Part shown: in pieces, positions 31,672 to 32,672 of the stretch
How the letters are laid out: each line of letters starts with the position of its first letter
Position numbering within the stretch: position 1 is the first letter of the stretch
Assembly (NCBI RefSeq): GCF_013122565.1
Contig: NZ_CP053258.1
DNA from: Escherichia coli
GTDB taxonomy: Bacteria > Pseudomonadota > Gammaproteobacteria > Enterobacterales > Enterobacteriaceae
Direction: 5' to 3' (one strand)
DNA: 64,000 nucleotides
Translations under genes and position numbers: made by a program
The notes under the pieces: model-generated
Told to the model about the DNA's origin: nothing
What the model saw: the letters and a program-made list of their open reading frames with translations, nothing else
Database searches by the model: none

Positions 31672-32597
31672 TCTGCAACATACAGGTGCAGCCGTGGAAT
31701 GATCAAACGAAGCGGCTGCGCCTGTGGTTTATAACGGTGCTGCACATTGTCGGCATTGTAATTTAACAACTCACCAACGTCCGGCACGCCCGCGCCATTA
31801 TCCCGATTAATCAGTGCAATCAGCGGCGTAGGGCAGGCGTGTTGTACTTGTTTTTGATCTCCTTTGTACCAGACGCGGGCAATCGGCTGCACCTTCACCG
31901 GACGTTTGATTTTTAACTTCGCGTCCTGTGGCAGGGCCGCGATATCCTGATACTCTCGCTCCAGTTTTCTTTGCCACTCCTCGCGCGTCCACGGTGCGAC
32001 ACTGCGTGGTGATTTCAGGCTTTTTTCCAGCTGTGCCAGGACTTCATCACGATGCAAATTCTTAATGATATGCTTATTAGCCCAACCAAAGCGTAAAGTG
32101 GCGGGGTCGTGCAGAACGGTGAGCGTGCGGTAAGCATTAAGGGTGATCAGCCCCGGCAAATGACGATGCACCCATTCAAAACGTGCCGCGGTGGGGAGTT
32201 CTGATTCAACCGTGACGATATGCTCGAACGTGGTCTTGAGTTTATTGATGTGCTGAATATGACTGACCAACGCTGCTTGCGAAAGGTTATCGACCTGGTA
32301 ACACAACACGCCAGGCAGACGGACAGCGGCCTTGCTGCTGCGATTTTCGGACTGTTGTTGAATAAATAAATGGCGGAAATGACGCAACGCCAGCGACTGC
32401 GCGTCGTTGCCGAGATGTTGTTTTACCTCAATACGATTAAGCGGATTATGCTCATCCTCTTTTTTTACCTCCGGCAAAGAGAACACGCGGGCAACCAATA
32501 GCTTGTGTTGCTCAAGATGAGCGGCAAATGTAGCCAGCTCTTGTTCCATCTGGCGAAAGGTAGTGTTGAGTCGGTCTACGAGATCGTAACGCGCCAT
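31668..32597 (-). CDS. tus: replication terminus site-binding protein Tus
   Basis: 309-aa product from ATG 32595-32597 ([14 protein letters not shown]...); stop overlaps the fumC stop by 4 bp. Confidence 0.93.
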
Positions 32598-32607
32598 AAT
32601 ATTAACC

Positions 32608-32630
32608 ACTTTAGTTACAACATACTTATT
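32608..32630 (-). other. terB: replication terminator site TerB
   Basis: bottom strand reads AATAAGTATGTTGTAACTAAAGT, an exact 23-bp match to the TerB sequence as I recall it, 11 bp upstream of the tus ATG. Confidence 0.9.
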
Positions 32631-32672
32631 TTATAGCACAGTCGTGGTGACTTGACCATCGTGCGCGTAGTG

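Follow-up and report, generated by a model that had tools for sequence, protein, structure and literature searches.

[quoted passage not shown] Neither TerB nor its overlap with the tus promoter is new; both were described from 1989-1992 onwards and have entered the textbooks. We present here an analysis of the site in the window, by which we mean the whole 64-kb stretch of E. coli DNA that was analysed.

The window is the reverse complement of positions 1,652,769-1,716,944 of E. coli K-12 MG1655, with which it is collinear (98.6-98.9% identity). Its genes run tyrS ... rsx ... uidABC-manA-fumA-fumC-tus-rstBA-folM ... pntAB ... ynfEFGH ... rspAB, and no IS elements were found within the 64-kb window. 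The preliminary description had assigned this DNA to the replication-terminus region, and the comparison with MG1655 bears this out, since the window maps to 1.653-1.717 Mb, inside the fork trap on its terC/terB side. The best identity over 24 kb among 5,426 complete RefSeq E. coli genomes was 98.8%; since none of them exceeded this value, the host represents an uncommon E. coli lineage. A Shigella origin, which an identity of no more than 98.8% had suggested, was discarded, given that the exact Tus allele is annotated as E. coli and that the window is free of IS elements. Two differences from MG1655 lie well away from tus. In tqsA (minus strand, about 42,194-42,200, within an ORF at 42177-42857) 86 nt are missing relative to MG1655 1,674,570-1,674,655, corresponding to nucleotides 658-743 of the gene; this shifts the frame, leaving an ORF of 226 amino acids as against 344, so that the autoinducer-2 exporter gene looks inactivated. 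In rsxC (minus strand, ORF 7807-9933) the segment 7,854-8,277 contains tandem repeats of approximately 96 nt which gave multiple offset BLAST alignments, and the gene possesses one repeat unit fewer than its MG1655 counterpart (708 versus 740 amino acids).

The 23-bp Tus-binding replication terminator site TerB, AATAAGTATGTTGTAACTAAAGT, was located by exact matching against the 64-kb window on the minus strand at 32608-32630. As the preliminary description had claimed for the bottom strand at this position, the alignment with TerB is without mismatch (23/23), and the sequence equals both that of MG1655 and that of the published oligonucleotide. In Ter numbering position 1 corresponds to 32630, G(6) to 32625, and position 23 to 32608. 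The conserved Ter core, positions 5-20 (AGTATGTTGTAACTAA; 32611-32626, minus strand), is the only 16/16 match in the window, and includes the G-C(6) pair, with G at 32625 on the minus strand and its partner C on the opposite strand. The published oligonucleotide, a TerB substrate that contains the native locus, CAAGTCACCACGACTGTGCTATAAAATAAGTATGTTGTAACTAAAGTGGTTAATATTATGGCGCGTT, agrees with the minus strand of the window (PMC4499146).

The interval 32595-32672 comprises the tus ATG and the complete 75-nt rstB-tus intergenic spacer. Between TerB and the ATG the sequence reads GGTTAATATT (32598-32607, minus strand), a spacer of 10 nt, so that the last Ter base falls at -11 relative to the A of the tus ATG. 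The distance of 11 bp given previously is correct as the position of that base, but not as the number of intervening base pairs, which is 10. The GG immediately following Ter is likely to be the remnant of a ribosome-binding site. Over 32560-32720 (161 bases, the whole rstB-tus spacer included) the window is 100% identical to MG1655, in which TerB (about 1,684,226-1,684,248, upstream of tus, b1610) consists of the same 23 bp in the same orientation to tus. There is no difference at the site itself, whereas the host of the window differs from MG1655 in carrying a rare Tus allele. The feature is the canonical chromosomal TerB-tus module of E. coli, already known, and at the site identical to that of K-12.

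The tus gene (31668-32597, minus strand, with its ATG at 32597-32595) specifies the 309-amino acid DNA replication terminus site-binding protein. The product matches Pfam family PF05472 (E = 8.4e-137), and is identical at 306 of 309 residues to the crystallised E. coli Tus (PDB 1ECR/2I06), the differences being I23T, N225D and D283N. The allele with these three replacements corresponds to E. coli protein WP_171459349.1, which is recorded on only two contigs. Residues E49, I79, F140, H144, G149 and R198, which we take to be cytosine-pocket or DNA-contact residues of Tus, are all unchanged. Judged from its sequence, tus is intact and encodes a cognate Tus with the cytosine-pocket residues retained. 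The coding regions of tus and fumC are convergent, their 3' ends sharing 4 nt (31,668-31,671), as they do in MG1655.

An operator of tus would be expected to stand immediately upstream of the gene and in its orientation, and this is how Ter is placed, 10 nt away. A simple sigma-70 consensus scan of 32300-33000 called no promoter, because a non-canonical TATAAA -10 with a TG extension, together with a weak -35, is excluded by the rules of the scan. Reading the minus strand by hand reveals a putative extended -10 element, TGcTATAAa, at 32630-32638, the last base of which is Ter position 1, and, 17 nt upstream of it, a weak putative -35-like hexamer, TGGTCA (4/6), at 32653-32658. From these motifs we infer the two elements and the geometry of the promoter, with the proposed -10, TATAAA, being without the usual final T and the -35 being weak. 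Transcription would start some 7 nt downstream of the -10, near Ter position 8 and inside Ter. Since Ter would begin at the last base of the extended -10 and ends 10 nt before the ATG, bound Tus would cover the region in which RNA polymerase melts the DNA and initiates; by occluding the polymerase it would repress the transcription of tus, a case of negative autoregulation.

PMC8707476, PMC8347550, PMC10331603 and PMC12809603 place TerB within the tus promoter and make it the mediator of autoregulation; the original reports, as cited in PMC8707476 and PMC12809603, are those of Roecklein et al. 1991, Roecklein and Kuempel 1992 and Natarajan et al. 1991. The earlier statement that TerB sits in the tus promoter and takes part in a known autoregulation agrees with this literature (PMC8707476, PMC8347550, PMC12809603), with the hand-read -10 and with the conservation of the latter. 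That Tus represses tus through TerB is taken by us from these publications, which support it.

The conservation of the arrangement was assessed by scanning one genome per species, which yielded 80 species of the Enterobacteriaceae with a Tus 67-98% identical to the query. In all of them (80/80) exactly one exact ATGTTGTAACTA is present within 250 nt upstream of tus, in the orientation of the gene. This search pattern corresponds to Ter positions 8-19 and did not impose A5 and G6, both of which proved to be invariant (80/80). T occupies position 7 in 74 of the 80 species and A position 20 in 71; the columns flanking Ter carry less than 1 bit each. In 75/80 species Ter is separated from the start codon by 6-10 nt, four others having a distance of 18 nt and one a distance of 27 nt, and there is a moderately conserved G at +24 (58/80) and at +25 (54/80). 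On the other side of Ter a TGnTATA motif abuts the site at the same offset, within 1-3 nt, in 56/80 species, and 15 further species possess a TAYART hexamer 11-15 nt upstream of Ter. In the alignment, the Ter upstream of tus is an island of strong purifying selection amid a fast-evolving spacer. The comparison of the 80 species independently reproduces the published conclusion that a tus-vicinal Ter forms a conserved module in the Enterobacteriaceae (PMC8707476).

At the level of the species, the TerB-tus locus was found in 5,423 of 5,426 complete E. coli genomes. Nine divergent loci were aligned, namely the window, MG1655 and seven others sampled across the range of identity. Variation inside Ter is confined in this set to positions 1-7: B2 strains, among them Nissle 1917, have G in place of T7, one strain has T in place of A3, and two strains have a single A inserted in the run of A residues at positions 1-5. 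Ter positions 8-23, the 10-nt spacer to the ATG, TGTGCTATAAA and the upstream GGTCA are invariant, as is TGcTATAAa; the stretch from GGTCA to TGTGC varies freely. The TerB variant of the B2 phylogroup, AATAAGGATGTTGTAACTAAAGT (Nissle 1917, BH100, BCE049), occupies the same locus with the same spacing to tus and the same positions 8-23, but has G at position 7, as do TerC and TerG, whereas the window has the K-12-type T7. This natural variant, AATAAGGATG..., with G for T at position 7, is common in E. coli, in B2 and other strains. In E. coli KTa005 (NZ_CP147084.1, 53-1560) a transposase gene of ISEcp1 lies directly upstream of tus, and no rstB is annotated within the 1.5 kb examined; homology to the window restarts exactly at the GGTCA of the -35-like element, leaving the putative promoter and TerB intact.

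The preliminary description had pointed out that the orientation of the site sets which fork is arrested, and this orientation can be read from the sequence together with the published assignment of the faces. The non-permissive face of a Ter site is the end nearest to G-C(6) (PMC4499146; PMC8707476). Forks that approach from the non-permissive end come to a halt at A(4)-G(6), those at the permissive end at A(23)-A(19) (PMC4499146); the C(6) lock is established on the non-permissive face and requires G-C(6) (PMC4499146, PMC8707476). [quoted passage not shown] Right-to-left forks, moving towards decreasing coordinates, would be arrested just before tus, and left-to-right forks would pass. Since the window is the reverse complement of MG1655, right-to-left corresponds to the clockwise fork, in agreement with the published polarity, the clockwise fork being the one that TerB, C, F, G and J stop (PMC8707476).

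The course of events at the site would be as follows. Monomeric Tus binds the 23-bp TerB, and a replisome travelling from right to left would meet the non-permissive face at 32630. Unwinding by DnaB would free C(6), opposite the G at 32625; the base would then dock in the cytosine pocket of Tus, locking the complex and stopping the fork just before tus. A fork travelling from left to right would meet the permissive face and displace Tus.

The habitual direction of replication was addressed through the composition of the window. Over the 64 kb the plus strand has a GC skew of +0.024, with each of the eight 8-kb bins giving a positive or near-zero value. KOPS (GGGNAGGG) are found 2:0 in favour of the plus strand in the same 64 kb, and Chi sites, at 5:5, are uninformative. 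With G exceeding C and KOPS at 2:0 the plus strand is probably the leading one, which would make the habitual fork the one that moves from left to right; the GC-skew and KOPS signals, weak over 64 kb, weakly suggest that the usual fork enters by the permissive face, as would be expected of a site on the far side of the trap. The canonical fork-trap arrangement around TerB in the window is supported by the synteny with MG1655. Since the terminus region has been found inverted in a few E. coli and Shigella, and the view was that of a 64-kb window, we infer the relation of TerB to oriC.

We might suppose that TerB is kept mainly as the operator of tus, with its role as a fork barrier secondary or a back-up. 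Few forks would ever reach TerB, since TerC is the innermost barrier on the TerB side; the trap of E. coli is classed as 'type II', meaning that another Ter lies further inside than the tus-vicinal one (PMC8707476; PMC10331603). The juxtaposition of Ter and tus in 80/80 species and the tight spacing to the start codon are likewise features that an operator needs and fork arrest does not. Several observations speak for the barrier. Fork pausing at TerB is substantial in the wild type, second only to or alongside that at TerC (PMC8707476, PMC10331603), and among the Ter sites the occupancy by Tus is highest at TerB (PMC8707476), where Tus ChIP-seq coverage reaches 430x and the half-life of the lock is 4367 s (PMC8707476). 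[quoted passage not shown] On this balance the notion that TerB is chiefly an operator appears unlikely. We consider it very probable that a single Tus-DNA complex at TerB carries out two functions, the polar arrest of forks and the repression of tus. For this dual role the literature on TerB provides Tus binding, polar arrest and repression; the window supplies the sequence, position and orientation of the site, an intact tus, and the deep conservation of the Ter-tus pair, and the reading is supported by the two together.

An additional function is conceivable with respect to transcription. The upstream, co-oriented neighbour of tus is rstB, which encodes a sensor kinase (32673-33974, minus strand, from the ORF list and the annotation of MG1655) and has its TGA stop codon at 32675-32673 on the minus strand. 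No intrinsic terminator or terminator-like hairpin was detected in the rstB-tus spacer, and the folding of the spacer RNA was no better than that of shuffles (z = 0.15). With no terminator between rstB and TerB, read-through from rstB is possible, and the orientation of genes and site is such that rstAB transcription would approach the non-permissive face of TerB. Mohanty et al. are said to have found in 1996 that RNA polymerase, too, is blocked by Tus-Ter from one side. That Tus-TerB acts as a polar transcriptional roadblock insulating tus from the RstAB operon is a speculative proposal, which we think has little chance of being correct; were it true, the level of Tus would be linked to the expression of rstAB only while TerB is free of Tus. 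Transcription reading through from fumC, if any, would reach TerB at its permissive face.

A different reading of the same bases is that tus begins not at the ATG but at an in-frame GTG at 32609-32607, as its real or an alternative start, which would lengthen Tus by four residues and make Ter partly coding. The codon noted in the preliminary description does exist (32607-32609, minus strand); it covers Ter positions 22-23 and is in frame with the tus ATG, and mechanical ORF calling extends the gene to it. Against its use as a start stand the RefSeq annotation, in which tus starts with the ATG and not with the GTG, and the crystallised Tus, which starts MARYDL. Moreover, the spacing between Ter and the ATG is 6, 7, 8, 9 or 10 nt depending upon the species; the nearest Escherichia species have 9 nt, so that in them the GTG is either lacking or not in frame. 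The proposed transcription start would lie only about 15 nt upstream of the GTG, which leaves no room for a ribosome-binding site. The relation of frame is not conserved among species, and we reject the GTG as the tus start, a very improbable reading, and regard it as an artefact of mechanical ORF extension.

That the TerB match is a functionless chance look-alike is so improbable as to be negligible, given that the match is exact (23/23), that the 23-mer had no matches in 100 dinucleotide-preserving shuffles, and that it stands at the canonical locus beside tus and is kept in 80 species amid diverged flanks. TerB is also the only site of its kind in the window. No second match to TerB was found in the 64 kb with 3 mismatches tolerated, and when all 16-mers of the window were compared with the conserved core, none other than TerB (16/16) scored above 12/16. 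A loose Ter-core pattern with up to 2 mismatches was found 19 times in the 64 kb, below the 26 occurrences expected by chance.

One other sequence matched the loose pattern with 0 mismatches, GTGAGTTGTAATGA, at 12297-12310 on the minus strand, over the start codon of blr. It has the orientation of TerB, with 13/23 identity to TerB and less than 12/16 to the core, and T17 and T5 where Ter sites possess C and A. Since MG1655 reads GTGGGCTGTAATGA there, the resemblance to Ter is produced by two strain-specific SNPs. The 14-mer is none of the named pseudo-Ter sites, since these (terK, L, Y and Z) map to 2.28-3.44 Mb, and as a functional Ter it is rejected on account of the 13/23 match and the T at C17; it is a chance look-alike, probably non-functional. 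A separate suggestion, that it might serve as a weak extra pause site, is in our view likewise improbable.

The value of TerB in a sequence such as this one is that of a landmark, which marks the terminus region, the terC/terB side of the fork trap, and the orientation of the window with respect to the standard map. How does the module compare with other known systems? TerA and the other primary Ter sites, TerC, D, E and G, share with TerB a common core (G6, ATGTTGTAACTA) and the same Tus protein. Only position 4 distinguishes TerA from TerB. Unlike TerB, the other Ter sites of E. coli are not in the tus promoter, and TerA, D and E have the reverse polarity, so that it is the anticlockwise fork which they stop (PMC8707476). 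A parallel outside of E. coli is offered by the type I traps of Edwardsiella tarda, Dickeya and Proteus (Toft et al. 2021, PMC8707476), in which Ter1 lies just upstream of tus in the same orientation and, like TerB, is presumed to combine autoregulation with the C(6) lock (PMC8707476). There the vicinal Ter forms the innermost and primary barrier (PMC8707476), whereas the E. coli trap, with TerC positioned inside TerB, is of type II. The same logic is encountered in Bacillus subtilis, where, according to Ahn et al. 1993 (cited in PMC10331603), RTP represses its own gene, rtp, via a terminator-type site at the terminator-proximal promoter of the gene. RTP differs from Tus in that it binds as dimers, and the fold of the protein and its DNA site are unrelated to those of Tus and Ter; the two systems evolved independently.
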